This document shows, piece by piece, positions 2,065-29,572 of a DNA stretch of 32,000 nt. Source of the DNA: Methanopyrus kandleri AV19. Its GTDB lineage: Archaea; JAADCQ01; Methanopyri; Methanopyrales; Methanopyraceae. The DNA lies in NCBI RefSeq assembly GCF_000007185.1, contig NC_003551.1:1290001-1322000 (forward strand), in the 5' to 3' direction. Under the pieces are notes generated by a model. That model was given only the letters and a program-made list of their open reading frames with translations, was not told where the DNA came from and did no database searches. How positions within the stretch are numbered: position 1 is the stretch's first letter; the number at the start of each line of letters is the position of its first letter. Position numbers and translations under genes: made by a program.

Positions 2065-2091
2065 CCGCGGGCCGGAGGAATCCCCGGCCGG

Positions 2092-2835: not shown

Positions 2836-2838
2836 CGT

Positions 2839-6913: not shown

Positions 6914-7127
6914 AAGTCCGTTTCCCTTTCCGGGTAGCAACGTGGGGTTTTCATCCGGGCCCGTAGGCCGTGCGTGGACCGAGCGTGCCGGTTGAGAGGT
7001 CGTGGAACCGGCGGCGTTCGCTTTTTTCATGAAATTAATTAGAGAGTCCCGATCCTGTACCGCCGTTGGTTATACTACAGACTAATCATGAAATGTTATA
7101 ATATTGTTATAGAATAATGTTAATGCA

Positions 7128-7617
7128 CTATCACTATCTGCATTATTACGGTTTAATTATAAGTTTCTAACAGTTGTAAAGTTAATAATCATCTATACAG
7201 CAGCGAGTACAGTGCAGTTTCATTACCCGTGTTATTACGGGTTAATTGCGAGTCTGTTGTATTGGTATTGGGATGTTCCATGTGACTTTTACTCTGGCGT
7301 ATGGTTTCATTACCCGTGTTATTACGGGTTAATTGCGAGAGACAAACTAGTAGCGTTCGCGAGATTCAAAGGAGATATCACGGTGTGTTCGTTTCATTAC
7401 CCGTGTTATTACGGGTTAATTGCGAGTTTTGCAATCGATGATGCTTTTGCTAGAATTTCTTTCATTTCTGGGTCTAAATCTCTTAATGTTTCATTACCCG
7501 TGTTATTACGGGTTAATTGCGAGCATGGACATAGACACGGACATAGACATGGACACGTCAACGGCTGTCGACATTCTAGCCGTTTCATTACCCGTGTTAT
7601 TACGGGTTAATTGCGAG
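7128..7617 (-). CRISPR. CRISPR array 1: five intact 36-nt repeats plus one degenerate terminal repeat
   Basis: On the plus strand GTTTCATTACCCGTGTTATTACGGGTTAATTGCGAG occurs at 7217, 7304, 7391, 7488 and 7582. A degenerate copy (~25/36 matches) lies at 7128-7163. Spacers are 53, 51, 51, 61 and 58 nt. Minus-strand sense is inferred from three things: the ...ATGAAAC repeat end, the degenerate repeat at the far end, and the TATA box in the 7618-8147 leader. Confidence 0.95.
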
Positions 7618-8147
7618 GGCGGCCAGTTCTTCCGGAGGACCCACCTTTACACTATGAAACTACCGAGGGGATTCACTATCCCTTACCCACCAGAACTAGC
7701 ACATCGGTCCTATTTAAAGATTGCCCCGATTTCGCTGAACACTTAATCATACTAAAATCCAATACTAATTCGTTTCCGTTTAACCGAAAGCCTTATATAT
7801 AATATTGGTAATACCGAAAACCATAGCTTTCTCTTACGAGTAATTAATCTGTTAACTTGATGAAGTAATAACTGTACAGTACTCGTAAACCGCCTTAATA
7901 CCTCATGAGAACTGTAATCCTTTACTAACAGTTAGAATTGTTATCCTTTCGAAGTGAAGTAAGGTGAAAATCTTGCACTGTTAAAGTGCACTAGTTAGGC
8001 TGCAGGAAAAACTATTACCAGTATTGATAAGTATGAGTAAAAGTGGTAATACTTCATACTCAAACCCTCCGGAACGACCGTTTCCTACGGGGAAGAACCC
8101 GCCTTTCTACCAAGTAAGTTAACCCTATGAAAAACCAGTACGAGATG
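7618..8147 (-). promoter_or_regulatory. CRISPR leader 1 (about 530 bp), inverted copy of leader 2
   Basis: AT-rich. It is a reverse-complement homologue of 16384-16913 with long identical blocks. TTTAAATA (minus strand, 7711-7718) lies 94 nt upstream of the first repeat, the same spacing as in leader 2. Conserved oligo-T tracts (A5 on the plus strand at 8007-8011 and 8130-8134) follow the cmr6 stop. Confidence 0.8.
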
Positions 8148-8181: not shown

Positions 8182-9390
8182 TCAGTACCGAACCTCGCCG
8201 TACCCGTAGCCGGCGCACGTCCTGGCGCCGATACCCAGGCGCTCCACGCCGTACTTCAGGAGCCTCAGGGCGACGTCCAGCGACCCCCTCCGCTCCGAGA
8301 CCAGGACCGTGCGCCACCTGGAACCCCGCCGGACTGTCAGGAACTCGACGGGCTTGGGTCGCATCGACTCGTGGGGAGGCCCCTCTCCCTCGTAGTACTC
8401 GCCGTAGTGCGGGTTCAGGACGTCGACCTCGAGCGGCGAGTCGACGTCCCTCAACCAGTCCGGATCCGGGAGCGCGTCGTGGAAGGTCACCTCGCCGGCG
8501 CGCTTGGACTCCGATGCGTTCCCGTCGTCGGACTCTTTGGGTTCCGACTCCCTTGGCTTCGATCCGAACACCTCACGGAAGCGCTTCCGGGCCTGTCGGG
8601 TGTCGTCGGCCCCGAAGTACTTCCTCAGCTCGTCGGGGTCTCCGCGTTCGAGGATCAGCTCGCCGGCCGCGCGGGCCACGCCCTTGAGGGTCGTCCCCGG
8701 GATCACGGGCAGGCCGGTCACCGGGTCCAGGGTGAGGTCGTTCTCGGCCGGGTGCGGGCCGCCCATCCCCACGACCAGCCTGGAGTGCGGGAACCGGAGC
8801 TCGACCTCGCGGACCCTGAGGTGCGGGCTCCGGCCCAGCTCCCTCAGCGTCTTCAGGTAAGACCCGACGTACCCGCGGATCTCGTCGGAGCGGGCCGCTT
8901 TCTCCGCGGCGTCCACGACCCGTCTCAGGAGCCTTCGGACCTCCCGTCTGAGGTTCTCCTCCCCGTCACTCAGCGCCCGGAGGGCCAGCGTCCGTTTCTC
9001 GTGGTACGGGTGCGTCCGGACGCCCTCCTCGGGGACTAGGGACTCCTCCGCCGCCTCCGCGACCCTCCGGCGCAGTCTTTCCACGCGGTCGCGCCCCTCA
9101 TCCTCGGGCAACTCGCCGACGGCGGCCGCGTTCCGGGCCAGGTCGGCGAGCCGCGTGGCCAGTCTGTCGGCCCGGGGTAGACCTTCTCTCTCCAGCTCGC
9201 GTTCGATCCGGTCGAGCGGCAGCCTCGAGAGCGCCTCCCTCACGTCCTCCCGTTCCGCGAGCACCAGGGCGCCCGGCAGACCGTAGTACAGGAGGACCGA
9301 GCACAGGGTCGAGAGGTCACCCTTGAGCTCCTCGTCGACGTCCTCCCGGAGCCGCGACAGCAGGACGTTCTCCGGGGAACGCTCGCTCAT
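8182..9390 (-). CDS. cmr6: Cmr6 (type III-B RAMP subunit)
   Basis: ATG at 9390 overlaps the cmr4' stop as ATGA. A helical N-terminal ~210 aa is followed by RAMP motifs: 'RLVVGMGGPHPAENDLTLDPVTGLPVIPGTTLKGVARA', 'VLNPHYGEYY', and C-terminal 'LGIGARTCAGYGYG'. In the six-frame track this gene is the 3' part of the 694-aa ORF 8182..10266. Confidence 0.8.
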   Translation of the reverse strand: MSERSPENVLLSRLREDVDEELKGDLSTLCSVLLYYGLPGALVLAEREDVREALSRLPLDRIERELEREGLPRADRLATRLADLARNAAAVGELPEDEGRDRVERLRRRVAEAAEESLVPEEGVRTHPYHEKRTLALRALSDGEENLRREVRRLLRRVVDAAEKAARSDEIRGYVGSYLKTLRELGRSPHLRVREVELRFPHSRLVVGMGGPHPAENDLTLDPVTGLPVIPGTTLKGVARAAGELILERGDPDELRKYFGADDTRQARKRFREVFGSKPRESEPKESDDGNASESKRAGEVTFHDALPDPDWLRDVDSPLEVDVLNPHYGEYYEGEGPPHESMRPKPVEFLTVRRGSRWRTVLVSERRGSLDVALRLLKYGVERLGIGARTCAGYGYGEVRY

Positions 9391-10266
9391 CCCAGCTCCC
9401 CCTCGAAGTTCAACCGTAGGACGCCGAAGCCGACGGAACCGCCCGCGCCGAGCTGTACCGAGGTCACCCTCCGGAGGACCTCGAGCGCGCGCTCCTCGGT
9501 CGGACCCAGCGTGGACGCGTCGACCTCGTACGGTCCCGCGAGGAGGGTGAGCCTGGGGCAGGAACTCCTCGGTCCAGAGGGCGCCCTCCTCCACGGTCTT
9601 GTCCCACGGGCCACCCAGCCGGACGCGGGTGCGGAGCTCGGTGACGACGGGCCGGTCCGGGTCGAGGAGCCCGGCGAAGGTAGCGTCGTCGAGGATTAGG
9701 AGGCGGGAGTGCAGCGGTAGCTTCCACGGTCCCGGGACGACCAGCTCGTCCGCGACGCCGTCGACTTTCCCGTTCCTGCGGACCACGAGCTCGCGGTGCT
9801 CCAGCACCACGCGCTCCGCGGGGAAGCCCGAGGGCGCGAGCGCCTCCCCGTCGGGCTCGGGCGCCTCGACGCCGATCCAATCCAGGACGTAGGGACAGGT
9901 GAGCCAGACGAGGGGCGTCGTTTTACCACCCTCCAGCGCGACGGGCGCGGGGACGGCCACGGGCAGGAGGTCCCCGAACGTCACCGCGCCCTTGGTGTCT
10001 CGGTCGCCGAAGAGCACCCGCAGGGCGCGCTCCCGCCGCTCCTCGGTGTCCTCACCCAGATCGCGCAGGATCTCATCGACCAGGTCGTCCGGCTTCTCCA
10101 GCTCGGCCTCGACGTGGGTCCTCAGCGCTCCCTTCACGGAGCTCCCCGGGACGTAAGGTACGCGGGTGTGCCTGCGCCGGATCAGCGGGAGGTCGATCGC
10201 GCCGGGTCGCCCACCAGTGCCCACTCGGGTGGGGGTCACCGTGAGGGCCCAGAGCCGGTTCTCCAA
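9387..10266 (-). CDS. cmr4: Cmr4-family RAMP paralogue (cmr4'), frameshifted as sequenced
   Basis: TTG start. The N-terminus 'LTVTPTRVGTGGRPGAIDLPLIRRRHTRVPYVPGSSVKGALR' is a Cmr4/Cas7 signature that includes the catalytic Asp context. The frame is lost after '...GALWTEEFLP'. The Cmr4 C-terminus 'LTLLAGPYEV...VQLGAGGSVGFGVLRL' continues in the +1 frame (ORF 9387..9614). The length is 880 nt (3n+1), consistent with one extra base near the CCCC run at 9555-9558. Confidence 0.75.
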
Positions 10267-10272
10267 GGGTGT

Positions 10273-11404
10273 TCACCCCGCCGATTTCGACACCCTCACG
10301 CGGCTCTCGGTTACTTCGATCCCGTGGCGCTCGACGCCGCGGAACGACCGGCGTAGCGTCCTCTCGAGAGCGTTCTCGACCCTCTTCCGATCCCCCTCCT
10401 CGACCACGACGGTCCCGTTCCCGGGGTGCAGCTTCCCTAACCACAGCAGCAGGACGGAGACCACGTAGCGACCGCGGTTCACGCCGTCGAGCTCGACCGG
10501 CGTCACGGAGAGGAGGAGCGGGGATCGCAGCAGCCAGGGGACCCCCGGCGTCGCTCGAACCTAGCAGCCACCGGAGCTCCTCGTTCGAGTTCTCGAACCT
10601 CTCGTTCCGGAGCCTCCGACGGGCCTCCCTGAGCGTGCCCCCCAGACGGTCCAGGAGTTTATCGACGCGCTGCTTCCTCCACTCGAACGTCCAGAGGGTG
10701 GCGCGACGGAAGCTCGGGAAGGATTCCACGGGCCCCGAGGTACCGTCGGAGCGTTCCGCGATCAGTTCCCTGAGATCGTCCAGGCACCCGCGGAGCCTAT
10801 CGACGAAGTCGTCGGTACCCTCCACGCGGGTGGACAGGTCGTCGGCCCGGACCTCGAAGCACCCGAAGGCGCGCCTGAACCGCCGGCCGTACCCACCGAT
10901 CAGGGACAGCAGCTCCAGGGAGAGCTTCGCAACCTCGAGTGCGTCTTCTCGGAGGCCGGTCAGCTCGAGCTCGAAGGTCGCTCCGGCCCGGATCACGAGA
11001 GGTTGCTCTTCACGTCGACCGCGCAGGTAGATGGGCGGGCATAGATAGCACCGGTTGTCGACCCGAAGTCGACCGTCTTCGTCGATCGTGATGCGGTATC
11101 GCCTTCGACGCCTCGCACACCGGCCACCCTCCTCGACGTCGTCCTCACCCACGCCCCTCCTCAGCCGCACCGAGACCGGGGAGGGTCGGAGGTCCTTCCC
11201 CTCCGACGGTCTGCCGCCCCAGAACTCGGCCTCGACGCGGCGGAGCCCGTCCCCGTCCAGGAAGGAGGCCGCGACGGCCCGGAACGCCCACCTGAACTGT
11301 CCCCTGAGCTCCGGGGGTCGGGGGAGCGGTCCGTCCCGGTCGTACCTCACCTGCGAGGTGATCGCGGGCGTGGCGAAGGTGCACCCGACGGTCAGGGTCC
11401 TCAA
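10273..11404 (-). CDS. cmr1: Cmr1 (type III-B RAMP subunit), frameshifted as sequenced
   Basis: TTG start. Signatures are 'CTFATPAITSQ...ELRGQFRWAFRAV' and 'LIGGYGRRFRRAFGCFEV' (G-rich loop). The frame is lost after '...EELRWLLGSSDAG'. The C-terminus 'PWLLRSPLLLSVTPVELDG...RYVVSVLLLW' continues in the +1 frame (ORF 10273..10506). The length is 1132 nt (3n+1). The shift lies in the GGGGG-T-CCCC run (plus-strand 10537-10546). Confidence 0.75.
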
Positions 11405-11474
11405 CCGCGGCCCCGGTCCGCCGCCGGGGATAGCTTTGATAAAGTTAATTCAGGGAGAGTGGCGAGGCGCCGGG
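11405..11474. promoter_or_regulatory. bidirectional promoter region between cmr1 and cas10
   Basis: This is the only AT-rich island (ATAGCTTTGATAAAGTTAATTC, about 11430-11451) in an otherwise GC-rich 70-bp gap between the divergent start codons (TTG 11404 on minus, GTG 11475 on plus). TATA-like elements sit roughly 25-40 nt from each start. Confidence 0.55.
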
Positions 11475-13472
11475 GTGAGCCGGGTGCCGAAGCTGGTCAC
11501 CGTGCGCCTACGGCCGTCCGGCGGCATCAAGACCTGGCTCCGGGGTCGTAAACTGGCGGACTCCCTCGCGGCGAGTTGGTTGCTAGGCTACCTGGTTTAC
11601 CGCGTGTACGAGCGGCTGTGCCGTAGGCTGGACGTCGAGAGGGTCCTCCGACCCGTCCTACCGGGGAATCACCCCTTCGAGAAGAAGCCGGATAACCTGG
11701 AGCCGTGGGAGACGCGCGGGTGCGTGATGCCGGACGCCGTCGAGCTGGTCGTGGACGGCGACGTGAGCGCGGAGGAGGTCGCCCGCATCGCCCGGGAGAC
11801 CGTGGAGGACGTGCTGGAGGACGTCTTGAAGCGCGGCCGCGAGACCCCCTGGAGGTGTCATAACGTCAGCCTGTACGAGCCGCTCGAGGACTGGTGGGAG
11901 CGCACGTCCGGGAGGTCCGCGGCGAGGGTCGAGCTCCCGCCCGGCCTGATCCAGGTCTCCGCGGCCGTCGTGGACCTGGAGGAGCCAGACGACGAAGAAG
12001 CGTACCGGGAGGCCGTCCGCCGCGTCGCGAGCCTCGTCGGGACGCGGGCCGAGGTGATGGACGCGAGGGGATCCGGGGGTCAGCCCTGCAGCGTCTGCGG
12101 TACGTACCCGACCGTGGGAGATCGTGAGTTCTGGGAGGAGCTCTCGGAGCGGCTCCCTCCCCAGCTCCTGAAGCGGTGGGAGGGCGGCTTCGAGCGCCTC
12201 TGCGCCGCGTGCCTGCTCAAGCGCTACTTCGGGACGCACGTGATACGCTCCTGGTACCTGGAGAAGATCTCCTGGATCCCGTCCACGGCCGAGGTCGCGA
12301 TCACCCCGGTCAAGGTCGGGATACTGAACAGGTGGGAGGAGCTCAAGGACGACGGGGGCTTCCGAGAGGCTGCCCTCGGGTTTCTGAGGGAAGTGCTACC
12401 GGAGCAGCTGCGGCAGATCGCCCACTACCTCAGGTGCGTCAAGGAGGTGGATCGGGCGGGGGAGCTCGAGGAGGCCGCCAAGGACCTGAAGAGGGACCGC
12501 CTGGAGCCCGAAGGGCTACCGGAGGACGTGAGGAAGGAACTCCACCGGCTGACCCCCAAGGCGCCCAGACTGGACGAGGAGCTGGGGGACGTCGAGGATT
12601 CCCTGATCGAGGTCCTCCTCTGCGTCGAGGGCAGGTTCTGGTACGATCCCGAGGCCCCGGGGGGACTGAGGGAGCTGCTCGAGGCCGGCGACCTGGAGAA
12701 CCTCTACACCCCGTACTACGCCCTCCTGAAGCTGGACGGCGACCGCATGGGCGAGCTCTTCTCGCGGGACCCGGAGACGACCCGCGGGGCCTCCCGGGCC
12801 ACGATCGAGTTCGGCCTGAAGGCGATGAGAATCGTGCACGGGCACTACGGGGTCCTCCTGTACTGCGGGGGCGACGACGTCTTCGCGGCGCTCCCCCTGC
12901 ACACGGCCCTCGACTGCGCGTTCGAGCTCGAGGAAACCTTCCGGGAGAGCCTGAAGAAGTGGAAGGGGACCTGCAGCGCCGGGCTGGCCGTCGTCCACCA
13001 CCTCCACCCGCTCCGGGACGCGATCGACCTGGCGTACCGGCTCGAGAAGAGGGCTAAGGAGGCCGGCAGGAACCGGCTCGCGGTAGGACTGTACCGGAGG
13101 AACGCCCCGGAGCGGGTCGCGGTCCTGAAGTGGGAGGCCGACGGGAAACGCCCCTGGGGGCTACTGTTCGAGCTCGCGGACCTCGTCTCCAGGAGGGCCG
13201 CGTACCACCTGCCGCGGGACTGGTGGGAGGGCTGGTGGGAGGAGCTCGACGAGCCGAAGAACCTGCTCCGCTCGCTGCTCGGGTACGTGGCGCTGAGGCA
13301 CCGAGGTGAGGGCGCCGACGAGGGTGAGATCGTCGGGCTCGTGGAGAGGATCGCCGAGGTCGTCGGGAAGGCCGGACCCGAGGACGGCGACCCGGGCGCG
13401 GAGGTGGGTCGCGCGCTGGAGATCGCCCTCGAGCTCCGCTCGGAGTGCCCGGCCGGGGGTAACGGGGGTTGA
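11475..13472 (+). CDS. cas10: Cas10/Cmr2 without an HD domain (GGDD cyclase motif intact)
   Basis: GTG 11475 (or 11484) is in frame with ORF 11055..13472; the upstream part of that ORF is antisense to cmr1 and then crosses the promoter gap. Motifs: 'KLADSLAASWLL', zinc finger 'CSVCG...CAAC', 'LLKLDGDRMGELF', 'LLYCGGDDVFAALP'. About 665 aa. There is no room for an N-terminal HD domain. Confidence 0.85.
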   Translation: MSRVPKLVTVRLRPSGGIKTWLRGRKLADSLAASWLLGYLVYRVYERLCRRLDVERVLRPVLPGNHPFEKKPDNLEPWETRGCVMPDAVELVVDGDVSAEEVARIARETVEDVLEDVLKRGRETPWRCHNVSLYEPLEDWWERTSGRSAARVELPPGLIQVSAAVVDLEEPDDEEAYREAVRRVASLVGTRAEVMDARGSGGQPCSVCGTYPTVGDREFWEELSERLPPQLLKRWEGGFERLCAACLLKRYFGTHVIRSWYLEKISWIPSTAEVAITPVKVGILNRWEELKDDGGFREAALGFLREVLPEQLRQIAHYLRCVKEVDRAGELEEAAKDLKRDRLEPEGLPEDVRKELHRLTPKAPRLDEELGDVEDSLIEVLLCVEGRFWYDPEAPGGLRELLEAGDLENLYTPYYALLKLDGDRMGELFSRDPETTRGASRATIEFGLKAMRIVHGHYGVLLYCGGDDVFAALPLHTALDCAFELEETFRESLKKWKGTCSAGLAVVHHLHPLRDAIDLAYRLEKRAKEAGRNRLAVGLYRRNAPERVAVLKWEADGKRPWGLLFELADLVSRRAAYHLPRDWWEGWWEELDEPKNLLRSLLGYVALRHRGEGADEGEIVGLVERIAEVVGKAGPEDGDPGAEVGRALEIALELRSECPAGGNGG

Positions 13473-14803
13473 CCGCGCGCCACGTGGCGGTCGGGTTCCT
13501 GGTCCTGCCTCAGGACCGCGCGTTCTTCCGCAGGCCCGAGCCATTCAGGGCCGCGGCCGAGTCGGTGGCGGAGTCGGAGGGTCCCAAGCCCTGGACCGTG
13601 GCCGGCTGCGTCCGCAACGCGCTCCTGGAGGTCACCGACGGGGACCTCGGGGAGGTCCTGGAGTACCCGCGGAAGCTCGTCAGGTCGGCCCCGCCCGGGT
13701 CGATCGGGGAGGCCCTGGGGGAGACGGCCCTCTTCCTCGGGACCTGGGTCGTCGAGGTGCGGCCCGGGGCGCCCGACCGGCTCGAGCGCGTCTGGTGGCC
13801 GTGCCCCGCCCACCTGGCGAGGTACGAGCCCGAAAGTGGGGGCGAGGCCGTCGACCTGCTGAGGGTCGAGGAGGTCGGGGACGCGGCGATCGCGTTCTCG
13901 GGTCACGACGAAGCACTCCGCCGCCGGTACGGGTTCATGACGCCGAAACCCCCGAGGCCCGGCTCGGACGTCGAGACCCCCGGGCGCTACGTCGACACGG
14001 GAACGATCTCGAAGATCCTCGCGGGAAGGACGCCCGCGAGAAGGACGCCGGACCTCGAGGACAACGTCGCGGGACCCGGGGAACTCCTGCGTCCCGAGCT
14101 CCACGTCGGCGTCAAGCTGGTCGGGCTCAAGACCGCGGACGAGGGCTACCTGTACGCCGCGAGGTTCCTCAGACCGGGCAGGTCCCCGGTGGACGGGGGT
14201 AGTCTCGTCGGGTTCCTCACGGTCCTGGCGGTGCCCGAGGACGCGTGGGACGACGGGGTACTGGAGGACCTCCCCTCCCCGGGCGGCCGACTCGGCCGGG
14301 GACGGCACGCGTGGGTGATCCCGCTCCGCGCGGGGGACTGGTCGGACGACGTCTTCCCCGAGGTGGAGGAACCGGAGGGGGACCTCCCGGGCCTGTACCT
14401 CGAGACCCCGACCCCGTTCCCGGAGGGTGACGTCCGGTCCTCCTCCCCGGGCGACCGCCTGAAGGCAGAGGCCGTCCTCGTGAGACCCGGGAGCCCAAGA
14501 GATCGCGTCCTCCAGGTCGAGCTCGAGGTCTCGGAGGTGGAGTCCGAGGTACTGGCCGACCGGGTGATCGAGACCCGCCGCGTCTCGACGTGGTCCGGTA
14601 AGCGCGCCTCCCCTGACCACCTGGCCGCCGCCGAGGGAACCGTGCTCGCGCTCGGGAAGCTCGACGTCGACCCCGGCACGCCCCTGCTCCTCTTCCCCAG
14701 GATGGGGGATGAAGACAGAGAGCTGCTCGCCTCCAGGCTCGCGTTCCACCTCTCCGGCGTGGGTACGGCCTACGCCCTGAGCCTACCGGGGGTGAGCCCG
14801 TGA
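13469..14803 (+). CDS. cmr3: Cmr3
   Basis: The TTG start overlaps the cas10 stop (TTGA). Motifs: 'LPQDRAFFRRPEPF...PWTVAGCVRNALL' and 'ELHVGVKLVGLKTADEGYLYAARFL', with a C-terminal Gly-rich end. The gene-order position is as expected for cmr3. Confidence 0.75.
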   Translation: MTARHVAVGFLVLPQDRAFFRRPEPFRAAAESVAESEGPKPWTVAGCVRNALLEVTDGDLGEVLEYPRKLVRSAPPGSIGEALGETALFLGTWVVEVRPGAPDRLERVWWPCPAHLARYEPESGGEAVDLLRVEEVGDAAIAFSGHDEALRRRYGFMTPKPPRPGSDVETPGRYVDTGTISKILAGRTPARRTPDLEDNVAGPGELLRPELHVGVKLVGLKTADEGYLYAARFLRPGRSPVDGGSLVGFLTVLAVPEDAWDDGVLEDLPSPGGRLGRGRHAWVIPLRAGDWSDDVFPEVEEPEGDLPGLYLETPTPFPEGDVRSSSPGDRLKAEAVLVRPGSPRDRVLQVELEVSEVESEVLADRVIETRRVSTWSGKRASPDHLAAAEGTVLALGKLDVDPGTPLLLFPRMGDEDRELLASRLAFHLSGVGTAYALSLPGVSP

Positions 14804-15828
14804 CGGACGCCCTCCCGTACTTCCTCGTGTGCCGGACGCCGACGAGGGCGGGTGCGGGTCAGCGGGCGACGGACGTGATCGACCTACCCCTCCAGCGCGA
14901 GGCGCACACGAAGCTCCCCGTGATCTACGGCTCCACGCTGAAGGGCGCCCTCCGCCACGCGACGCTCCGGAAACTCTCCGAGGAGCTCGACGGGGAGACC
15001 TCCGAGGGGCTCGTCGACGCGGTCTTCGGGGACAGACCCGGCGAGGGTAGCCCGTCACCGGGCGTCGTCGCCTTCAGCGACGCCGTCCTCCTGGCCATGC
15101 CCGTGAGGTGCGAGCCCGGCTTCCTGGCCTGGGTGACCTCACCGTACCAGCTCGGTAGGCTGTACGAGGTCCTGGAGCTGACCGGGGAGCTGGAGGACCT
15201 CCGGGAGGCCGTCGAGGAGGTCCTGAACGACTGTAAGGACCCGCGGGGGAACGGTGCCCTCGCGCCCGAGGAGGGCACTCTCCTACTCGACAGGATCAGG
15301 GTGAGGGCGGAGGCCAGCGACGCCGTCGGGGATCTCGCCGGGGTGCTCTCGGAGACGGTGTTCGAGGGCGCGCCCGAGCCCCACTTCCGGCGCTACGTGG
15401 AGGAACGGCTCGTGGTCCTGGGCGACGGCGCGTTCGCGGACCTCGTCAACTCGTGCACGGAGCGCGTCGTCCGCGTCCGGCTCAACGAGGAGAAGACCGT
15501 GGAACAGGGCCCCTGGTACGAGGAACGCGTGCCCGAGGGGACCGTCTTCTTCGGCACGCTGAACGTGCGGCACGACACCGTACCGCCCAAAAACGGCGTC
15601 GACGCCCGGAAGGTGCTGTTCGGGAGGTGGGAACCGGACGGCGTGCCCGACGGGGACGACAGGAAGTTGGAGGCCCTCAAGGAGGCCGCCGGGGAGCTGG
15701 AGGCGGGCGTGCTCGGGGCGGTCGCCGACGGGAGCGGGGACGGCTACCTGGACCTCCGGTTCCAGGTCGGGGGCAGCGAGACGGTGGGCTTCGGTCTCGT
15801 ACGTCTCAGGCAGTTCGTGGGGGAGTGA
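14800..15828 (+). CDS. cmr4: Cmr4 (backbone RAMP subunit), intact
   Basis: The GTG start overlaps the cmr3 stop (GTGA). Motifs: 'VCRTPTRAGAGQRATDVIDLPLQREAHTKLPVIYGSTLKGALRHA', 'EQGPWYEERVPEGTVFFG', and C-terminal 'FQVGGSETVGFGLVRL'. Confidence 0.85.
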   Translation: MTDALPYFLVCRTPTRAGAGQRATDVIDLPLQREAHTKLPVIYGSTLKGALRHATLRKLSEELDGETSEGLVDAVFGDRPGEGSPSPGVVAFSDAVLLAMPVRCEPGFLAWVTSPYQLGRLYEVLELTGELEDLREAVEEVLNDCKDPRGNGALAPEEGTLLLDRIRVRAEASDAVGDLAGVLSETVFEGAPEPHFRRYVEERLVVLGDGAFADLVNSCTERVVRVRLNEEKTVEQGPWYEERVPEGTVFFGTLNVRHDTVPPKNGVDARKVLFGRWEPDGVPDGDDRKLEALKEAAGELEAGVLGAVADGSGDGYLDLRFQVGGSETVGFGLVRLRQFVGE

Positions 15829-15831
15829 GCG

Positions 15832-16332
15832 GTGACCGTGACCCCGTTCCGGTGGGCCGTCGAGTGCGTGAGGGATGTGGAGCGGCTGACGGGCACGGTC
15901 TGGAAGGACTCCGACGACCCGTTGGAGACGTACTACAAGCGCGCCACGAGGGCCGCCGTGATGGTGCTCGAGGAGGGCCTCCCCCTGACCCTCGCGTTCA
16001 TGGCCTCCCGGGGATCGAAGGACCCCGGCACCCTGCTGGCCTACCACCTCGCCATGTACCTCAACCACGTCGTGTTCGCCGACGAGCCCGAGTGGTCGGA
16101 GCTCAGGGAGGAGTGCTTCGGCCGGTTCGACGACGTCGACGAGGACGAGATCGCGGAGAAGGTCGGAGAGTACGTCCGGGACGAGGTCAGGGAGGCCCTG
16201 GTGGAGCTGGCCGGGAAGGAGGGCACCCTCGAGATGCGCTACGCCGAGTCACGGGCGCTCGAACTGCTCAACGTGATCAAGCGCGTGGCCGAGGGTTGGC
16301 ACAAGGTGTCGAGGTTCGGGGGCGGGGATTGA
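15832..16332 (+). CDS. cmr5: Cmr5 (small subunit)
   Basis: 166-aa helical protein starting 4 nt after cmr4. 'YYKRATRAAVMVLEEGLPLTLAFMASRG' and 'LEMRYAESRALELLNVIKRVAEG' fit the Cmr5 pattern. Confidence 0.75.
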   Translation: MTVTPFRWAVECVRDVERLTGTVWKDSDDPLETYYKRATRAAVMVLEEGLPLTLAFMASRGSKDPGTLLAYHLAMYLNHVVFADEPEWSELREECFGRFDDVDEDEIAEKVGEYVRDEVREALVELAGKEGTLEMRYAESRALELLNVIKRVAEGWHKVSRFGGGD

Positions 16333-16383: not shown

Positions 16384-16913
16384 CATCTCGTACTGGTTTT
16401 TCATAGGGTTAACTTACTTGGTGGAAATGCGGGTTCTTCCCCGTAGGAGACGGTCGTTCCGGGGCGCTTGAGTATGAAGTATTACCACTTCTACTCATAC
16501 TTATCAATACTGGTAATGGTTTTTCCTGAAGCCCAAAATATGCACTTTAATAGTGCGAGTTTTGCATCTTATTTCAATTCGAAGAGATGACGATTCTAAC
16601 CGTTAGCAAAGAATTATAGTTCTTACAAGATATCAAAGCTATCTGTAGGCACTATGTAATTATTACTTCATTAAGTTAACTCATTAATTACTCATCAGGA
16701 GAAACTATAACTTTCGGTATTACCGATGTTGTATATTAAACTTTTGACTAAAGGGAAACAGATTAGTATCGGATTTTAGTATGATTAAGTGTTCAGCGGA
16801 ATCGGGGTAATCTTTAAATAGGACCGGTACGCCAGCCCTAGTGGGTAAGGGATAGGGAATCTCCTCGGTGGTTTCGGAGTGTAAAGGGTGATCCTCCGGA
16901 AGAACCGCCTGCC
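16384..16913 (+). promoter_or_regulatory. CRISPR leader 2 (about 530 bp), inverted copy of leader 1
   Basis: Homologous to the reverse complement of 7618-8147. TTTAAATA at 16813-16820 lies 94 nt upstream of the first repeat. T5 tracts at 16397-16401 and 16520-16524 follow the cmr5 stop. Confidence 0.8.
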
Positions 16914-17701
16914 CTCGCAATTAACCCGTAATAATATGGGTAATGAAACGGTAATGAAACTAGTATAATCTCCGTTAATTCATCTGCTACCTCTGGTAGT
17001 CTCTGTATTTCCGCAAACGCTCGCAATTAACCCGTAATAATATGGGTAATGAAACAACGCCTGGAGAAAAGCCTTCGGTAAACCCCTAACAGACACAGCC
17101 CTAAGACCCCTCGCAATTAACCCGTAATAATATGGGTAATGAAACAATACCAGAACGTCTCACCCGCATGGAACTTCGGCTTCAGCGGAGTACCACACTC
17201 ACAGACTCGCAATTAACCCGTAATAATATGGGTAATGAAACCGCTGTGGATAAACGATTGTCCACCGTGATACATAGCCGTCTAACCCTTCTTCGTCTCG
17301 CAATTAACCCGTAATAATATGGGTAATGAAACCTGTCTTCGCTTCTGGCCTTACTGTCTTCGTGAATGTTCCAAGCTCCAGGTAGTCAACTATCATCCTC
17401 GCAATTAACCCGTAATAATATGGGTAATGAAACTCTTGAGTAGGATACCGTTGATGATTGCCTCTCTCGTTTCCTTTGCCTCGTAGCCTCGCAATTAACC
17501 CGTAATAATATGGGTAATGAAACTGTGCTGGTGCTAAGTGAAAAGATTGCCACCCAATGCCCTAGATCTCTGACTCGCAATTAACCCGTAATAATACGGG
17601 TAATGAAATCCCACTACCGTCCTACATACTGCAGAGAGGTCCACCGTTGTTTTTATCCCATAACTCTCGTAATTAATTCGTAATAAAACGGATAATAAGA
17701 C
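16914..17701 (+). CRISPR. CRISPR array 2: eight 36-nt repeats plus degenerate terminal repeat(s)
   Basis: CTCGCAATTAACCCGTAATAATATGGGTAATGAAAC occurs at 16914, 17020, 17110, 17206, 17297, 17398 and 17488. A variant lies at 17574 (...AATACGGGTAATGAAAT) and a degenerate copy at 17666-17701. Further relics run to about 17800. Spacers are 70, 54, 60, 55, 65, 54, 50 and 56 nt. Confidence 0.95.
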
Positions 17702-18019: not shown

Positions 18020-20213
18020 TCAGGCCGAGATCCACCGGCGGAGCGCCGCCGGCGTCGGCACCGGTAGCACCCACCACACCGGGAGCCTCCGACCCTTCGG
18101 CTCCCGCGGCTGCGGTTCCCGTTTCACTCCCTCAGCCCCCTCGCTCTCTCCCCCGTTCTTCCGCCCCTTCCCGGTGCCTCCGTCCGGTTTCTCCGGCTCC
18201 GAGGGCTTAGGTTCACCCTCGGTCCCGTTCTTCGAGCTCTCGGTGGCCCCTCCGGTACCCTCGGTGCCTCCGGTCGGTTTTCCGGGGCCCTCCGGCTTCG
18301 TGGACGTCTCCCGGGTTCGATCCGTCTCCGTCCCGCCGCCCACGCCGTTCGCGGGCTTCTCTTCCCCGGGTTTCTCCTCCGTCCCCTCCTTCTCCTCGGG
18401 CTTCTCACCGGTCCCCTCCTCACCGCCGGTCTGGGTCCCCTCGATCCCGCTCGGTCGCCCGAAGCTCACGCTGCGCACGGGGGCGGGCATGGGGCCGCTG
18501 AAGGTACTCCTCAGGTAGAGCGTTTTACCGCGCCACTCGATCCTCGCGAGCGCTACCACCCGGTAGTCCCCGGGGTCCACCTGGAAGGTCGCCGAGAAGT
18601 CCCCGTACTTCCCCACCGGCACCTCCCGGGCCGCCACCAGTTCGTTCCCGCGGTACAACTCGACGCGAACCTCCCGGATCTCGATCCTCTCCGACGAGCC
18701 CCCCCGACACCAGCAGGGCTCTGGACGTGCTGCCCTTCACGCGTACGGGCGACGTGTCGGACGACTCGATCCCGGCGAAGAGCGGGATCTTCAGTCCGGC
18801 CACCGCGAACACGTCGTCCACGGTACCGTCGCGGTACCGAGCGACTATCCGGAAGACGTACAGGGTGTGCCCGTCCACGTCGATCGTCAGCACGCCCTCC
18901 CCGGACCGAAGCTCCCCGCTCCAGACCTCGTAGCAGCCGTGGTAGCCGTAGTCCTCGTAGAACGTCGCCTTGAGGCTCTCGACCTCGCCGGTGACCCGGT
19001 ATCTCAGGACCAGCGTGGTCCCCCGCTCGGTGACGTCGAACAACTCCATCTCGGCCCTGACGTCCGCGGGTCTCCAGTACCCGTCGTAGTACACCCGCGG
19101 GTTCAGGTACGCCTCGAGGGCGCCCATCGCGGCGGCCGTCGTCCCCTCGTCGTCCGACCAGCTCCCGTACTCGGGTCCCGTGGTCGCGACCTGTCCTTTC
19201 AGCAGCCAGCGGACGGTCGCGTGCAGGTCGTACTCCGGGTCCTCGATCAGGTCCCGGAGCTTCCTCTTACCGCCGGGCGTGTCGACCTCGACGTCCGTCG
19301 CGATATCGTACCACAGCGCCTTCAGCAGGGCGAACCGCAGCACGTCCCCGGTCGTTCGCACGTCGGGCGAGCCGTTCCGCGTCCAGACCGGTCCGTGCGA
19401 GCCGTCCACATCCTCCCAGGTTACACCCGACTCGGCGCTGAACAGCCACTCGAGGCCCTTGCGGACGGCGTTAAGGATCCCGTCGCGGTCCACGTCCAAC
19501 CCGAGCCGGTCCGCCAGCCGGTACACGTCGATCAGCGTCGAGATCACGCGCGCGTGATCGGCCGGGTCCTGGTCGAACCCGCCGTCGCTCCCCTGGTGTC
19601 CCAGCAGCCAGGCCATCCCACGCTCCACCGCCTCCCGCACCTCGGAGAACGCGGTGTCGTCCAGCCCCAGCTGACCGCCGACGACGTCGCGGAACTGGAG
19701 CACCCTCAGCAGGAGCTCCACCGCCGAGGCCGTTTCTTCGGGCTTCTCCTCGCGCCATCTGCCCCAGCTCCCGTCGTCGTCCTGGGCCTCGACCAGCCCC
19801 AGGATCTTCTCCCTGATGACGTCGCGGTCGGTCACGGGCGCGAGACCCTGGTAGACGGTCTCGTGCAGGATCGGTTCCAGTAGTCTGTTCACGTCCCGGA
19901 AGGTCGGGTACAGGAGCAGCCCTATGCGGACGGCCGGCCACGTGTCCGCGGGGCTCGACGCCGGGACGTGCAGGGGTACCCGCGAGGCTAACGAGTCCAT
20001 GCGCTCCGCCGCGAACAGCACCGGGTACGCCGTATCGAACGCCGCGTTCAGGTGTTCGTTGCCCTCGGCGAACCACCAGATCGTGGCTCGCTCGACGGCT
20101 TGCCTACACTCCTGCCCGATCGCACCGTACTCCTGGGAACCCGTCCAGTCCAGGGCCGAGGTCGGCGCGAGCGCCGCCAGCAGCACCACCGCTACCACGG
20201 TCGCGGGTCGCAA
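18020..20213 (-). CDS. large secreted protein with prenyltransferase/terpene-cyclase-like alpha/alpha-toroid repeats, frameshifted as sequenced
   Basis: TTG start. Signal peptide MRPATVVAVVLLAALAPTSA. Repeated 'QDDDGSWG', 'HQGSDGGF' and 'GPEYGSWSDDEG' motifs. The frame is lost at 'RALLVSGG' in a 7-base homopolymer (C7 at 18699-18705 on the plus strand). The protein continues in the +1 frame (ORF 18020..18658) into a Gly/Glu/Thr/Lys/Pro-rich linker and the tail 'RRLPVWWVLPVPTPAALRRWISA'. The total of 2194 nt is 3n+1. Confidence 0.7.
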
Positions 20214-20225
20214 GGTGGCCCCCTT

Positions 20226-20245
20226 CGGTTACTGAAAAGTAACCG
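20226..20245 (-). promoter_or_regulatory. perfect 8-bp palindrome between the TATA-like box and the start codon (candidate operator)
   Basis: CGGTTACT-GAAA-AGTAACCG lies immediately downstream (minus strand) of TTTATTTAT (20247-20255) and 13 nt upstream of the TTG start at 20213. Confidence 0.35.
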
Positions 20246-21335
20246 ATAAATAAAGCTCGCAACGCCCGCGTCCGGCGCCGTCCTGCCGTACCCGAGGAAC
20301 GCGAGTCGAGGGAAGCCCCCCTTCGAGCCTGTCGATGGGTTAGGGACAGCGCGACGGCGAGCGCGTACAGTGGGTACACCTCGAGCGTCCTCTCCACCAC
20401 CCGGTGGTACAGCACCACCTCGTCGTGAAGGGGTACCGTGGATCCGCTGCGGACCGCGTGGTCCCTCCGCCCGAGCGGTACGCGCCCGACGTCCTTATCC
20501 TTCGGACGGTGTCGGACCTAGCCCCCTCGGTCCCGACCCCGGCGGGGATGACCTCCGGGGAGGGATGTGAACCTCTAGAAGCTGCGAACCGTGATCGTGC
20601 GGGACGACCAGGAGCAGGGAGAGCAGGTCCGACGTCCCGTCCGGTGGCGTGACGCACGGTTCGAACGCCCCGCGCTGAATAGGGAGACGACGCGTCGACG
20701 CGGATCGAAGGGGCCCTCCGGGCGGGTTCCCACCGTCACTGAGGCGACGACCTCGGCGGGCGATCCCACGGTGCGCATCCTATCCCGACGTCGGACGGAC
20801 GGTGCTCCGCCTTCGGGACGACCGCGGCGATTCAAGGTCAGGCCCCTTCTCCGGCGCGACGCGGGGTCCGGACCGTCCGCTCGGTGCCTCGACTTCGGGG
20901 GAGGGGGCGAGATGTTGCGCACGGGTCGACGGGCCCGACCCCGATCCGGTCCCTCGCGGCGGAGAGGGCGTTCCGACGGTGGAGGGGGTTCACGGTCGGT
21001 GCTCCGTGATGTGGACGGTTCGGTCGAAGACATCCCCGTACGGGTCCGCGGGGGATGACTCGATCGACAGTCGGAACCGTTTCGACCCTTCCCGGACCGG
21101 GCGGAGCCCCCGGAGGGTCCGTTCGAATCCCGGTCCTCACGCACGGTCCCGACGGTCTCCGAGGTGAGCGACGATCTCGGCGGGCTCGCGGTGCCGTCCG
21201 GGATCCATCGGAGACCGTGGGACGTCGCCGCGGTACCGGGCCCATCATCGGGCCCGAATGTACGATTCCGGATACACGTAAATACGCTTCGAAAACGGGT
21301 TACCGGGTCGGGGATACCCTATCTACCCTCCCCGG

Positions 21336-22216
21336 ATGACCGTGAGTTCTCGAGGCCGTCACCCCGGTGTTCATCGGGAAGAGTTGTCCTCCGGTACTGG
21401 CTCAGGGCGCTCCTCGGGCGGTGTTCGGACTGGAAGGAGGTGCGCGGGTTCGAGGCGGCCGTGTTCGGCGGGAAGGTCGACGACGAGATGTTACCGCCCT
21501 CGGTGAACCTGGTGTTAGTCGGAGAGCGGCAGATCGGGTGCTCAGAGGACTACGGTCCGGTCGTGGGGGGAGACCGGAGGAAAGGTTGGGCTTGGAGGTT
21601 CTACCTGAGTATCCCGTACGGGAGGGGTCGAGGTTCGAGCTGGAGGCCCGGTACGTCGTCTCCGAGCGTGCCGAGCGGATCCTCGAGGAATACGGGCTCG
21701 ACGGGAACTCCGTCCGGAAGGCCTTCGAGCGGTCCCTGAAGTTCCTCTCGCTGCTGGGAGGTGTAGGAGCGCGCTCGCGTCGGCGCGCCGGGTCGCTGAT
21801 GTGGGAGGAGGTCGTACTTGGGGATGGATTACGGGAGCACGTCAAATAGATCGTCGACTGGATCGAGGATAAGCTGGGCGACGGACTCCGGGACGAACCG
21901 GGGGTTCCCCGCGTTCAGGGATGGTTACTTTGCGGTCGGCGTCGGGCCAGGGGCGAAAAGCCTGAACGAGGCGTTGGAGTGCGCCTGGAAAGTTTACGAC
22001 CGGCTGAGGAATGAGTCGGAGAATAAGAGACGAATGGGGCACTACCTCGGGATCGGTCGCAGGTACTCGCGCTCACGGGTTCACTTCCAGGTCAAGCGCC
22101 TGAAGAACGGTGAGTTCGTGCCCGTGGTGACGGCGTTCGCGGGGCGGAGGAAGGAGAGGGGAAACCTGAAGGGCGTCCGGAAGGCTATGGGGAAGAGTTG
22201 GACGCTTTACCCGTGA
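21336..22216 (+). pseudogene. decayed solo cmr1-like RAMP gene
   Basis: Cmr1-type motifs are spread over three frames: 'LEAVTPVFIGKS', 'LRYWLRALLG', 'FGGKVDDEMLPPSVNLVLV', 'FLSLLGGVGARSRRRAGS', 'FPAFRDGYFAVGVG' and 'SRVHFQVKRLKNGEFVPVVTAF'. Frame changes occur at 21340-21400, at the G6 run 21565-21570 and at the G5 run 21900-21904. There is also an in-frame TAG at 21847-21849. Confidence 0.7.
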
Positions 22217-23237
22217 GGCGGCGTCTCCCTCGCATCGGCGGCGGCACTATCGGCGGAACCGGTAGCTCGTGCTTCGCCGGTTTCTCCCGCTCGGGTTTCC
22301 GACCCGTCTTCGGACTCGAAGGCTCCTTCTTCTCCAACCCGATCACCGCGACCACGGGCACGTACGGGAACCCGAACCTCCCGGTGACCCGCGGCCACTC
22401 CGACTGCACGACCCGTTCCCCTTCCTCCCGCACACCGACGACATCGACGGCGGCGCCACTCCCTCCACCACTTCCTCCGAGCGTCAGTACCAAGTGGTCC
22501 GTGAGCGACACGTTCGTGAAACCCTCTTGGATGTCGGCGAACCCACCGGGCCACAGGAACAGGACGTGCGGACTCCAAGCGTCCGATGTCGCCCAACAGT
22601 TGAATCCGCCTCCCCGTCCTGAAGGCTGTAGCGGCGCGGGCCACTCGATGCACCCGAAATAGTAGTAAGATCCTAGCTCTGGGTAGTGTTTCGGTCCCGC
22701 GATCGGTAGTCTATCGATCTCTTCGGGCTCCCTGTGGGCGGTCGGTATCCTGAGCTTCAGGACCAGGGCGGAGCAACCGTGCCTCCGCTCGTCGTACTTA
22801 GGCGTCACCCGGAAGTCGAGTTGGGTCCACCTCCAGGTCCAGCCGAGCACTTTCCACGTGACCTCCGAGCGGCTCACGGGCTCGATCCGTTCCCACTTGA
22901 CGTTGACATCGGGGCTGTCCAAATCGATCCCCTCGATCGGGTATAATTCGGGATAGAACCTGGCCTCGAGCACCTCCGTGCCCTGCGGTAGGAGCACGTG
23001 CAGCGTCACCGGCTTCCCGGGCTCCTTAACCCTGATGTACGCGCGGTACTCCGCGTCCACGTGGTCGACGACTTCGACTCCGTGATCGGATTCCTTCAAG
23101 TGGACGTCCTCGATTATCAGGTCGCTCTGCACGCCCACGTCCAGGAGCGCCTCCGGACCCACCCAAGCGTCACCGTGAACGGGCAACGGTAGGACCAGCG
23201 CCAACAGGGCCGGTAGGAGGACCCACCGCACCCTCAC
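22185..23237 (-). CDS. secreted protein of unknown function
   Basis: GTG start. Signal peptide MRVRWVLLPALLALVLPLPVHG. The C-terminal Lys/Glu/Pro linker is followed by 'LPVPPIVPPPMRGRRRL'. The 3' end overlaps the convergent pseudogene by about 30 nt. Confidence 0.65.
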   Translation of the reverse strand: MRVRWVLLPALLALVLPLPVHGDAWVGPEALLDVGVQSDLIIEDVHLKESDHGVEVVDHVDAEYRAYIRVKEPGKPVTLHVLLPQGTEVLEARFYPELYPIEGIDLDSPDVNVKWERIEPVSRSEVTWKVLGWTWRWTQLDFRVTPKYDERRHGCSALVLKLRIPTAHREPEEIDRLPIAGPKHYPELGSYYYFGCIEWPAPLQPSGRGGGFNCWATSDAWSPHVLFLWPGGFADIQEGFTNVSLTDHLVLTLGGSGGGSGAAVDVVGVREEGERVVQSEWPRVTGRFGFPYVPVVAVIGLEKKEPSSPKTGRKPEREKPAKHELPVPPIVPPPMRGRRRLTGKASNSSP

Positions 23238-23372
23238 GCGGAGGCCCCGCGATGGGAGTGCGGCGGTGCGGGATTACTGTTTTTCGCAACGTGGACGTCG
23301 TGTGGTGAACCGGGAAGCCGGATCGCCCGGTGTAGGACCGGAACCCCCGACCGGAGGGTATCTCCGCCACGG

Positions 23373-24599
23373 TCAGCAGCCCCCGTTCCCACCGTCACCA
23401 CCGTTACCACCATCGCCCCAGTCTCCTCCGTCGCCGAACCAGCCACCATTTCCCCAGCCCCCTTCCATCGATTCGGCGATTTCAGCGATGCTATCCACGA
23501 TACTCTCGAAGATGCCACCGGACTCATCGGAATCCCACCAGTGATAATCCCCGAGGCCATCGCCCCCTGCGCACCAACCGTTATGGTCACCGTCATGGTC
23601 CCGGTGCCGTCGGGACCCGTGTCCGTCGTCGGTCCTACCCTCGTGTGGGTGGAGCTCGGAGAACGTCTCCCCGAGCGGGACCACGCCGCCGAAGGCGAGC
23701 GTCCAATCTTCTGCTGAACCGCGGCGACCGACCCCCAGCAGGGCGACAATCGGGGCGCGGTCCTCCGACCTGCGGCCGAGCGGGATCGCGATACCGCGGA
23801 GGTCGTGCTCGGTCTTGAACTCGTACCGGCTCGTTGGAGGTATCACGAGCGTCACGTGGAAGGTCACGAGGCTACCTTCCTCGGCGAATTCGCGCAGGGC
23901 GTCCCCGGAACCCACGATCTTCAGGGCTTCCCTCAGCGCACCCCTACACCCTTTGATGTAACCCCTACTTCCCACTACGAACTGGGTTCCCTTCCCTCCC
24001 GAGAGGTCGCGGTCCGGCACCTTCAGGAGTCCGGAGAGCCTGCGGTCGAGCTTGTCCGGAGTACCTTCGGCTCTGAAGACGACACCGACGATGTCTTCGG
24101 CCTCCTCCACGATCCTCGACGCCTCGCGGACCACCTTACGCCCCGCCGATCTCGCCGACCAGAGCGCGGCGATCAGTAGTATCACTGAGAGTACGATCAC
24201 CTCACGATCCGCCAGTCTCGCCGACCATAGGACGACGATCAGTGGTATCGTCGAGAGTACGAACCGTACGGGTGCGGTCATCGGTGCCGATATTAGCAGC
24301 AGTACGAATAGCAAGAGCAGTGAGGGGAGGAGACCGAAGACGAAGAACACGATCGCCGTCGTCAGGCCGAGGATCACTATCCAGACGTCGGAGAACAGTT
24401 CGAGCCATCGCAGGGCGAGGAGCGTCGAGCGCTCCCCGATATCGGGTGCCCCCTCGACGCCGGCGGAACCACGGATTCTCCCGGCGGTATAAGCCTTACG
24501 ATAAGTATACGGTGGCCGGGCGGTGCCGGTGCGTGTCGATACGAAACGCGGCGGTACCGGCGGTTCCATCCCGCGGGTCGTCCTGGTGGTGACTTTCAT
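23373..24599 (-). CDS. membrane protein with a Gly/Asp/Trp-rich C-terminal tail
   Basis: The ATG overlaps the stop of the upstream membrane gene (ATGA). There are several hydrophobic helices, including a duplicated '...LWSAR(L/S)A(D/G)R(E/K)' segment. A soluble domain, a His/Asp-rich stretch and the tail 'GGWGNGGWFGDGGDWGDGGNGGDGGNGGC' follow. Confidence 0.65.
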   Translation of the reverse strand: MKVTTRTTRGMEPPVPPRFVSTRTGTARPPYTYRKAYTAGRIRGSAGVEGAPDIGERSTLLALRWLELFSDVWIVILGLTTAIVFFVFGLLPSLLLLFVLLLISAPMTAPVRFVLSTIPLIVVLWSARLADREVIVLSVILLIAALWSARSAGRKVVREASRIVEEAEDIVGVVFRAEGTPDKLDRRLSGLLKVPDRDLSGGKGTQFVVGSRGYIKGCRGALREALKIVGSGDALREFAEEGSLVTFHVTLVIPPTSRYEFKTEHDLRGIAIPLGRRSEDRAPIVALLGVGRRGSAEDWTLAFGGVVPLGETFSELHPHEGRTDDGHGSRRHRDHDGDHNGWCAGGDGLGDYHWWDSDESGGIFESIVDSIAEIAESMEGGWGNGGWFGDGGDWGDGGNGGDGGNGGC

Positions 24600-26125: not shown

Positions 26126-26131
26126 TCGATC

Positions 26132-28490: not shown

Positions 28491-28568
28491 CGTCCGAGGT
28501 ACGGTGCCGCGACCTTCATCCGTATTCCTCGATGTCTCGAAACCTTTAGAGGATGCTATCTCGAACCC

Positions 28569-29530: not shown

Positions 29531-29572
29531 GAACGGCCGGTACTCCGGGGGGACCTCGGCCGCGGTCCCGTG

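Follow-up and report, generated by a model that had tools for sequence, protein, structure and literature searches.

The stretch of DNA analysed here (the window) comprises 32,000 nucleotides (nt) of Methanopyrus kandleri AV19, positions 1,290,001 to 1,322,000 of contig NC_003551.1, and contains two CRISPR arrays, one on each side of this archaeon's type III-B Cmr module. Array 2, the AV19 'CRISPR cluster 3', is on the + strand at 16914..17701 and has nine 36-nt repeats and eight spacers; array 1, the AV19 'CRISPR cluster 2', is on the - strand at 7128..7617 and has five 36-nt repeats that are identical and a sixth, terminal copy that is degenerate. All repeats of both arrays were located by fuzzy search. 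Seven repeats of array 2 (starts at 16914, 17020, 17110, 17206, 17297, 17398 and 17488) are identical and define the unit CTCGCAATTAACCCGTAATAATATGGGTAATGAAAC; repeat 8, at 17574, has two mismatches, and repeat 9, at 17666, has eight and is a degenerate terminal copy. The identical repeats of array 1 are at 7582-7617, 7488-7523, 7391-7426, 7304-7339 and 7217-7252, with the degenerate copy at 7128-7163, and their unit differs from that of array 2 at two loop/stem positions. In both arrays the degenerate repeats are the leader-distal ends. Identical 36-mers spaced this regularly cannot have arisen by chance. CRISPRdb defines an array by at least three near-identical direct repeats of 23-55 nt that are regularly spaced and have unique spacers; the window arrays have nine and six copies, of which seven and five, respectively, are identical.

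What sets these arrays apart is the length of their spacers. Those of array 2 are, in order, 70, 54, 60, 55, 65, 54, 50 and 56 nt long, and those of array 1, from the leader outward, 58, 61, 51, 51 and 53 nt (53, 51, 51, 61 and 58 nt in + strand order). These values reproduce exactly the lengths claimed in a first-pass annotation made from the sequence. At 50-70 nt against a 36-nt repeat the spacers are 1.4-1.9 times the repeat length, inside the 0.6- to 2.5-fold range that CRISPRdb allows, and their GC content is 31-54%, compared with about 68% in the flanking genes. The repeat-end duplication that the same annotation had noticed in the first array 2 spacer is also present: an 11-nt duplicate of the repeat 3' end (GGTAATGAAAC) occupies 16950..16960 (+), at the start of the leader-proximal spacer, which measures 59 nt without the duplicate and 70 nt with it. 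One crRNA (CRISPR RNA) of AV19 cluster 4 likewise contains half a repeat, and together the two cases suggest occasional slipped integration or recombination. In array 1 the leader-proximal spacer (7524-7581) has an internal 12-nt tandem repeat, GTCCATGTCTAT, in about 2.5 copies.

Spacers of ordinary length could look long if the true repeat extended beyond 36 nt, or if each interval concealed a degenerate repeat; these were the two circumstances in which, according to the first-pass annotation, its own reading would fall. Inspection of the repeat boundaries lends support to neither. Per-column information is at its maximum across the 36 repeat positions; one column beyond them, on either side, it has dropped sharply, to about zero. 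The Rfam family CRISPR-DR11 (RF01324), a model of 36 positions, matches the 13 non-degenerate repeats from end to end (1-36 of 36) at 61-63 bits, where the gathering score is 45; the two terminal copies are not among these. The 6- to 10-mers common between window spacers are no more frequent than among shuffled spacers, and no repeat-like 12-mer was found within any window spacer, the 11-nt duplicate at 16950-16960 being the sole repeat-like material inside one. Published crRNA 5' ends all fall 8 nt before a spacer and none within one, and the same 36-nt boundary is seen in about 25 arrays of relatives (described below). A longer or cryptic repeat is thus ruled out by column information, k-mer sharing and the Rfam model, and we regard this explanation of the long intervals as barely credible. 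The repeat folds as a short hairpin that ends one nt before its last 8 nt, that is, before the published cleavage site.

The leaders of array 2 (16739..16913, +) and array 1 (7618..7792, -), supported by leader-leader alignment and the published rule for the transcription start site, are identical at 146 of 175 positions (83%). Both contain a TTTAAA box, and the arrays are transcribed outward. For all five AV19 clusters Su et al. (2013) reported that transcription starts at a G 71-73 nt upstream, in conjunction with a conserved TTTAAA box, and the same leader architecture occurs upstream of about 28 arrays in relatives. The same authors found all five clusters to be expressed, giving crRNAs with an 8-nt 5' tag and with 3' ends described as 'gradually degraded'. 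The RNAs that they list for clusters 2 and 3 in Table S1 (six and eight, respectively) all map to the window with zero mismatch (14/14), in the correct order and orientation, one per spacer, with a spacing that fits an offset of about 1,290,008. This exact agreement identifies the window as M. kandleri AV19, at roughly 1.290-1.322 Mb of NC_003551. Thirteen of them are tagged crRNAs, and every one begins 8 nt before its spacer with the tag AAUGAAAC. The crRNA of the leader-proximal array 2 spacer begins at the genuine tag, at 16942, and reads across the 11-nt duplicate. The untagged RNA, 'spacer 6' of cluster 2 (79 nt, 7072-7150, -), begins within the degenerate terminal repeat and extends into the trailer. 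Because it starts there without a normal tag, the degenerate copy must still be transcribed, although its processing is different.

The lengths of these RNAs, which we took from the same table of published RNA-seq data on total small RNA, show that the long spacers give rise to long crRNAs. The 13 tagged crRNAs from the window are 55-83 nt long and retain 47-70 nt of spacer and 0-16 nt of the repeat that follows; in eight of them the entire spacer is followed by 2-16 nt of repeat. The most abundant (coverage 84,000-160,000) are 61-66 nt. Over all 38 tagged AV19 crRNAs in the table the range is 37-83 nt and the median 64 nt, with 37 of at least 50 nt and only one of 45 nt or less. The type III-B norm of about 39-46 nt, which is drawn from the systems studied so far and is no formal criterion, is therefore exceeded by the 55-83 nt found in total small RNA. 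The first-pass annotation had called for small-RNA sequencing and had offered extensive 3' trimming, to 37-45 nt, as one way in which long spacers might be accommodated; the data published in 2013 from these very arrays answer the point, and the RNAs in that preparation are not trimmed to such lengths. The trimming idea can be kept in another form, in which the functional crRNA is canonical because the Cmr or Csm complex cuts back the 3' part to about 37-45 nt and leaves the distal 10-30 nt of spacer idle. The long RNA-seq species would then be intermediates. Their ragged, gradually degraded 3' ends would fit this, as would the single listed crRNA of 37 nt and the 2-16 nt of next repeat that several listed RNAs retain, as expected of intermediates; moreover, the sequenced RNA was total small RNA rather than complex-bound RNA. 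Yet 37 of the 38 listed tagged crRNAs are at least 50 nt, with their median at 64 nt, the most abundant window species are those of 61-66 nt, and an accumulation at 37-45 nt was not reported. We accordingly judge such trimming unlikely.

Are the long spacers peculiar to these two arrays? A metagenome scan with the pattern TTAACCCGN{8,11}GGGTAATGAAAC returned 37 loci, nearly all from one Joint Genome Institute (JGI) sample (3300026512), and relatives of the window's Cas10 protein contributed three further loci. A scan of a genome contig collection with the repeat core gave no match, so that the source genome is evidently outside that collection. In about 30 leader-bearing arrays that have the same 36-nt repeat family and leader architecture we counted some 200 distinct spacers, all of which, apart from those of the window and one other locus (L004), come from one metagenome. 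Their lengths are unimodal at about 44-72 nt with a median of 53 nt, and 96% are at least 46 nt; the few values near 80 nt that fall outside this range come from artefacts at array edges. Far from being peculiar to the window arrays, long spacers are fixed in the order Methanopyrales as a whole.

The relatives also show what a long spacer consists of. In nine groups, spacers that were acquired independently share part of a target and tile contiguous stretches of it (the loci concerned are L006/L034, L013/L041, L015/L024/L041, L017/L027, L019/L020, L022/L031 and L016/L041). Overlapping spacers always have the same orientation but differ in their ends and lengths, for example 67 versus 44, 56 versus 63, and 52/47/47 nt. 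Since they tile their targets with different ends, each long spacer is one contiguous fragment, and the target does not determine how long it is. In nine pairs, too small a sample for a PAM to be derived, the 5' flanks of the overlaps have no strict motif (CG in three, otherwise mixed) and the 3' flanks start with C in six of seven. The overlaps bear on the possibility that spacers were acquired at ordinary length and lengthened later, by local duplication or by loss of intervening repeats. The 11-nt repeat-end duplicate in the first array 2 spacer, the 12-nt internal tandem repeat in the first array 1 spacer and the half repeat in the cluster 4 crRNA are the kind of traces that such lengthening might leave, but 11 of the 13 window spacers have no internal duplication, and the contiguous targets tiled by overlapping spacers of relatives do not agree with it. 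The length distribution is also wrong: fusion of two ordinary spacers would give about 70 nt if the repeat were lost, or about 108 nt if it were kept, not a unimodal peak at 53 nt. Later lengthening is thus a very improbable origin for the long spacers.

Protospacer searches were negative. Viral contigs searched with the repeat pattern and with three leader-proximal spacers of relatives gave no matches, all 13 window spacers had no match among GenBank phages, and a comparison of all spacers with 275 kilobases (kb) of collected loci returned only array-edge artefacts.

An unusual adaptation ruler was one of the options put forward in the first-pass annotation. Since it is already in the DNA that the spacers are long, adaptation must capture pieces of 50-70 base pairs (bp) whichever of the other options holds. 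The adaptation genes lie elsewhere. A self-contained CRISPR-Cas locus has cas1 and cas2 adjacent to its arrays; in the window, cas1, cas2 and Argonaute/Piwi have no match in any scanned open reading frame (ORF), and tblastn searches of the window with the Cas1, Cas2 and Argonaute of a relative found none either. In M. kandleri the Argonaute gene sits between cas1 and cas2 (Su et al. 2013 and further literature). We found the same gene order in a relative, on contig Ga0256842_1000929, where an array is followed by cas2, a Piwi protein gene and cas1 (TIGR01573, PF02171 and TIGR00287); the cas1-Argonaute-cas2 arrangement of AV19 is therefore conserved. The operon of the relative occupies 997-4525 of the contig (997-4143 of L010, running into L017) beside a long-spacer array, and encodes a Cas2 of 100 amino acids (aa), a Piwi-domain Argonaute of 755 aa and a Cas1 of 332 aa. 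On this contig, of 25 kb, there are at least four arrays, and also a gene for an MCM helicase.

One proposal is that the Argonaute between cas1 and cas2 is specifically responsible for spacers being long and loose in length, either as a supplier of long fragments or as a member of the capture complex. The order cas1-ago-cas2 is conserved between AV19, as known from the literature, and a divergent relative, both with long spacers, and Cas1 and Cas2 are themselves of ordinary size. In Marinitoga piezophila, furthermore, the CRISPR-linked Argonaute and Cas1 both bind a primase-polymerase, and pull-downs recover these three proteins together with Cas2 (PMC8211822). Against this, the basis for Methanopyrus is co-occurrence, and the known products of Argonaute 'chopping' are far below 50 nt. 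Other archaea have long, variable spacers and no Argonaute, for example Pyrobaculum with 38-53 bp (CRISPRdb paper). A specific role for the Argonaute is at present rather doubtful. The parallel with the Argonaute-linked cas1-cas2 modules of Marinitoga piezophila and Thermotoga profunda is that a long Argonaute lies beside cas1/cas2 in a CRISPR locus; the Marinitoga operon differs in having an additional primase-polymerase (CAPP), and the Methanopyrales operon lies outside the window.

Taken with the published RNA data, these observations make it very probable that the spacers of clusters 2 and 3 are genuine, that they are long by virtue of the rule under which they are acquired, and that they are used as long crRNAs by type III effectors. 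Each 50-70 nt interval is one genuine spacer and very probably a contiguous copy of foreign DNA. Direct or published data show that the arrays are transcribed outward from the conserved leader promoter, that the transcript is cut in every repeat, 8 nt before the spacer, so as to leave the 5' tag, and that little more than nibbling takes place at the 3' ends, giving cellular crRNAs of 55-83 nt with 47-70 nt of spacer. Spacer length would be fixed at acquisition by the cas1-Argonaute-cas2 module elsewhere in the genome, possibly with participation of the Argonaute, and under a rule that is both long and loose (about 45-70 bp, with the mode near 53). Two type III effectors would then use the long crRNAs, the Cmr complex encoded in the window and a Csm complex encoded elsewhere in the genome; their Cas7/Cas11 backbones may be proportionally longer, or the crRNA 3' tails may be unprotected. 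These two types are also the ones given for AV19 in a later review, and no type I system is reported in the genome.

The identity of the window and the measurements are contradicted by nothing, but several points weigh against this interpretation. Table S1 of Su et al. (2013) lists a single representative sequence for each spacer, not read-length distributions or complex-bound RNA, and among its crRNAs one has just 37 nt; the authors also call the 3' ends gradually degraded. Together these leave room for a shorter functional form within the effectors. Given that no protospacer was found, the contiguity of the spacers rests on the overlapping spacers in relatives. The Cas1 and Cas2 of the relative are of ordinary size and have no visible extension that could act as a ruler. 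Finally, two Cmr genes are frameshifted (see below), and in AV19 these crRNAs may be used mainly by something other than the Cmr complex.

The Cmr module lies between the two arrays. On the + strand, cas10/cmr2, the gene for the type III-B large subunit (11436..13472), matches TIGR02577 (E = 2e-124; 416 bits against a cut-off of 79) and the Pfam Cmr2_N and Cas10 palm2 domains; the protein database contains a 678-aa form of the product, and relatives of this Cas10 are from Methanopyrus sp. and Methanobacteriota metagenome-assembled genomes (MAGs). A scan of genome contigs for Cas10 returned a single short MAG contig. In the window, cas10/cmr2 is followed on the same strand by cmr3 (13469-14803; TIGR01888, 7e-104), cmr4 (14800-15828; TIGR02580, 1e-102) and cmr5 (15832-16332; TIGR01881, 5e-7), each also recognized by Pfam. 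A divergent operon of three genes (8182..11404, -), assigned by NCBIfam, Pfam and PADLOC searches, comprises a cmr1-like RAMP gene (10285-11404; PADLOC Cmr1), a second cmr4-like RAMP gene (about 9390-10266) and an intact cmr6 (8182-9390). Cmr3, Cmr4, Cmr5 and Cmr6 all exceed their NCBIfam cut-offs. The cmr1-like gene is split over two frames near 10537-10541 and the cmr4-like gene is frameshifted near 9553-9557, both within G/C homopolymer runs. According to tblastn the orthologues in two relatives (L002 and L003) are intact, those of the cmr4-like gene encoding 297 aa, and the L002 orthologue of the cmr1-like gene is unbroken. The frameshifts could be sequencing errors or real decay of the Cmr module. 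An ORF of 694 aa at 8182-10266 that reads as a 'Cmr4-Cmr6 fusion' was rejected as a frameshift artefact, in which the ORF runs into cmr6.

The first-pass annotation had taken two Cmr4 paralogues as a hint of longer effector backbones. The second cmr4-like gene is real and is intact in relatives, but its copy in the AV19 sequence is frameshifted, which weakens the hint. That type III backbones scale with crRNA length is known from type III-A Csm complexes, which contain five to ten Csm3 subunits (PMC5965380). The backbone of these complexes grows in 6-nt steps and can hold crRNAs of about 70 nt, so that by analogy longer Cmr4/Cmr5 backbones in M. kandleri are plausible. There is a difference in what makes the RNA long: in the Csm case the RNA has not yet matured and owes its additional nucleotides to the repeat, whereas in Methanopyrus the extra length is spacer.

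With the canonical III-B systems of Pyrococcus furiosus and Thermus thermophilus the window shares the gene set (cas10/cmr2, cmr3, cmr4, cmr5, cmr6 and cmr1, the last as a frameshifted cmr1-like gene), the 8-nt 5' tag, the variable crRNA 3' end and the CARF/Csx1 accessory genes. In those systems, spacers are about 35-40 nt and mature crRNAs 39-46 nt. AV19 differs from them in its spacers of 50-70 nt and listed crRNAs of 55-83 nt, in its extra Cmr4-like RAMP gene (frameshifted here, intact in relatives), in having no reported type I system, and in that its adaptation genes, including the Argonaute, lie elsewhere. Broad ranges of spacer length within one genome are likewise found in Pyrobaculum aerophilum (38-53 bp) and Haloferax mediterranei (33-54 bp), and the CRISPRdb paper and Li et al. 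(2017) provide the view that such variable spacers are evidence that the Cas1-Cas2 ruler is not the sole determinant. The ranges of these two archaea, however, begin at normal lengths, in genomes with type I systems, whereas Methanopyrales spacers are hardly ever below 46 nt, and the AV19 genome has type III effectors only.

The long spacers of M. kandleri have been recorded before. The CRISPRdb paper (Grissa et al. 2007) gave them as 51-72 bp, the longest observed, in five CRISPRs with direct repeats of 35-36 bp; our 50-70 nt with a 36-nt repeat differ from that entry by a one-base boundary convention. Li et al. (2017) cited them again as an example of spacer-size heterogeneity. The window arrays are the same locus as AV19 clusters 2 and 3 of Grissa et al. 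(2007) and of Su, Tripp and Randau (2013), and the repeat, the tag AAUGAAAC and the TTTAAA leader all agree. The finding made in the window is correct but already known, the long spacers since 2007 and the long crRNAs from these two arrays since 2013; with organism, spacers and crRNAs all in the literature, by itself it adds nothing new. The three options that the first-pass annotation drew from the long spacers form a reasonable scheme, which existing data have overtaken and already separate in part. For specialists interested in the cause of long-spacer capture and in the codon-phase lock described next, the lineage-wide set of some 200 spacers, with its overlaps, strand bias and codon-phase locking, is a concrete starting point.

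Strand and codon phase were analysed in 182 spacers from the relatives' arrays (L002 and L004-L041) with a codon-position likelihood classifier. Read in the crRNA sense, these spacers are C-rich and G-poor; the mean GC skew is -0.22, and it is negative in 85%. The classifier assigned 86% of the 182 as antisense to coding sequence. As its recovery of simulated true antisense fragments is 77%, essentially all of the relatives' spacers may be antisense. Such a bias fits RNA-targeting type III immunity. In the 157 spacers classed as antisense, the codon position that the first nt faces is position 2 for 60%, position 3 for 26% and position 1 for 14% (chi-square p = 3e-12), while a simulated control is uniform. 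The bias is present in 25 of 30 arrays, in every length class and after clustering. In the commonest class of spacer the first nt faces position 2 and the last nt position 1, in agreement with an excess of lengths that are 2 mod 3. Simple causes, checked by hand against codon-position frequencies, do not account for the lock: none of a single flanking nucleotide, CC/CG dinucleotides or avoidance of pairing with the 5' tag yields 60:26:14. It is not detectable in the 35 AV19 spacers, which are few and AT-richer, and we found no report of the phase lock or the strand bias in the literature searched. From these sequence patterns it is possible, if still on the doubtful side, that the long spacers of Methanopyrales are captured or retained in a strand-specific and codon-phase-specific manner. 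If so, and if the pattern is no by-product of a flanking-motif preference, it would amount to a new selection rule in a type III-only organism, and could be a property either of the cas1-Argonaute-cas2 module or of interference by type III effectors. Combined with a crRNA length of about 64 nt, such a rule would further imply effector backbones of unusual length.

Other type III-associated genes are found to the left of the Cmr module. Profile searches identified a HEPN plus nucleotidyltransferase protein (2092-2835, -) and a Csx1/CARF-family protein with weak similarity to ring nucleases (2839-4143, +), both type III accessory proteins, and PADLOC identified a NurA-like 'type III co-evolved' nuclease (5771-7030, -; E = 1e-107). 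The Csx1 gene of relatives is directly adjacent to cmr6, but in the window the two are separated by array 1, the NurA-like gene and an ORF of 429 aa (4371-5660) that is uncharacterised. No convincing Cas6 was found in the window, only a weak RAMP/Cmr1-like match in an ORF of 160 aa (21367-21849), perhaps a remnant or else a divergent Cas6. Also present in the window is the Pfam family DUF1678, which we take to be specific to Methanopyrus; like the Methanopyrus sp. relatives of the Cas10, it pointed to that genus. Most of the large ORFs to the right of array 2 (18525-32000; 562, 350, 408, 636 and 660 aa) have no match in Pfam, NCBIfam or PADLOC, an exception on this side being a DUF3492/GT4 glycosyltransferase (26132-27613). 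Inside the ORF of 408 aa (23373-24599, -), which has no family match, two tandem 66-nt copies that are 79% identical lie at 24129-24260.

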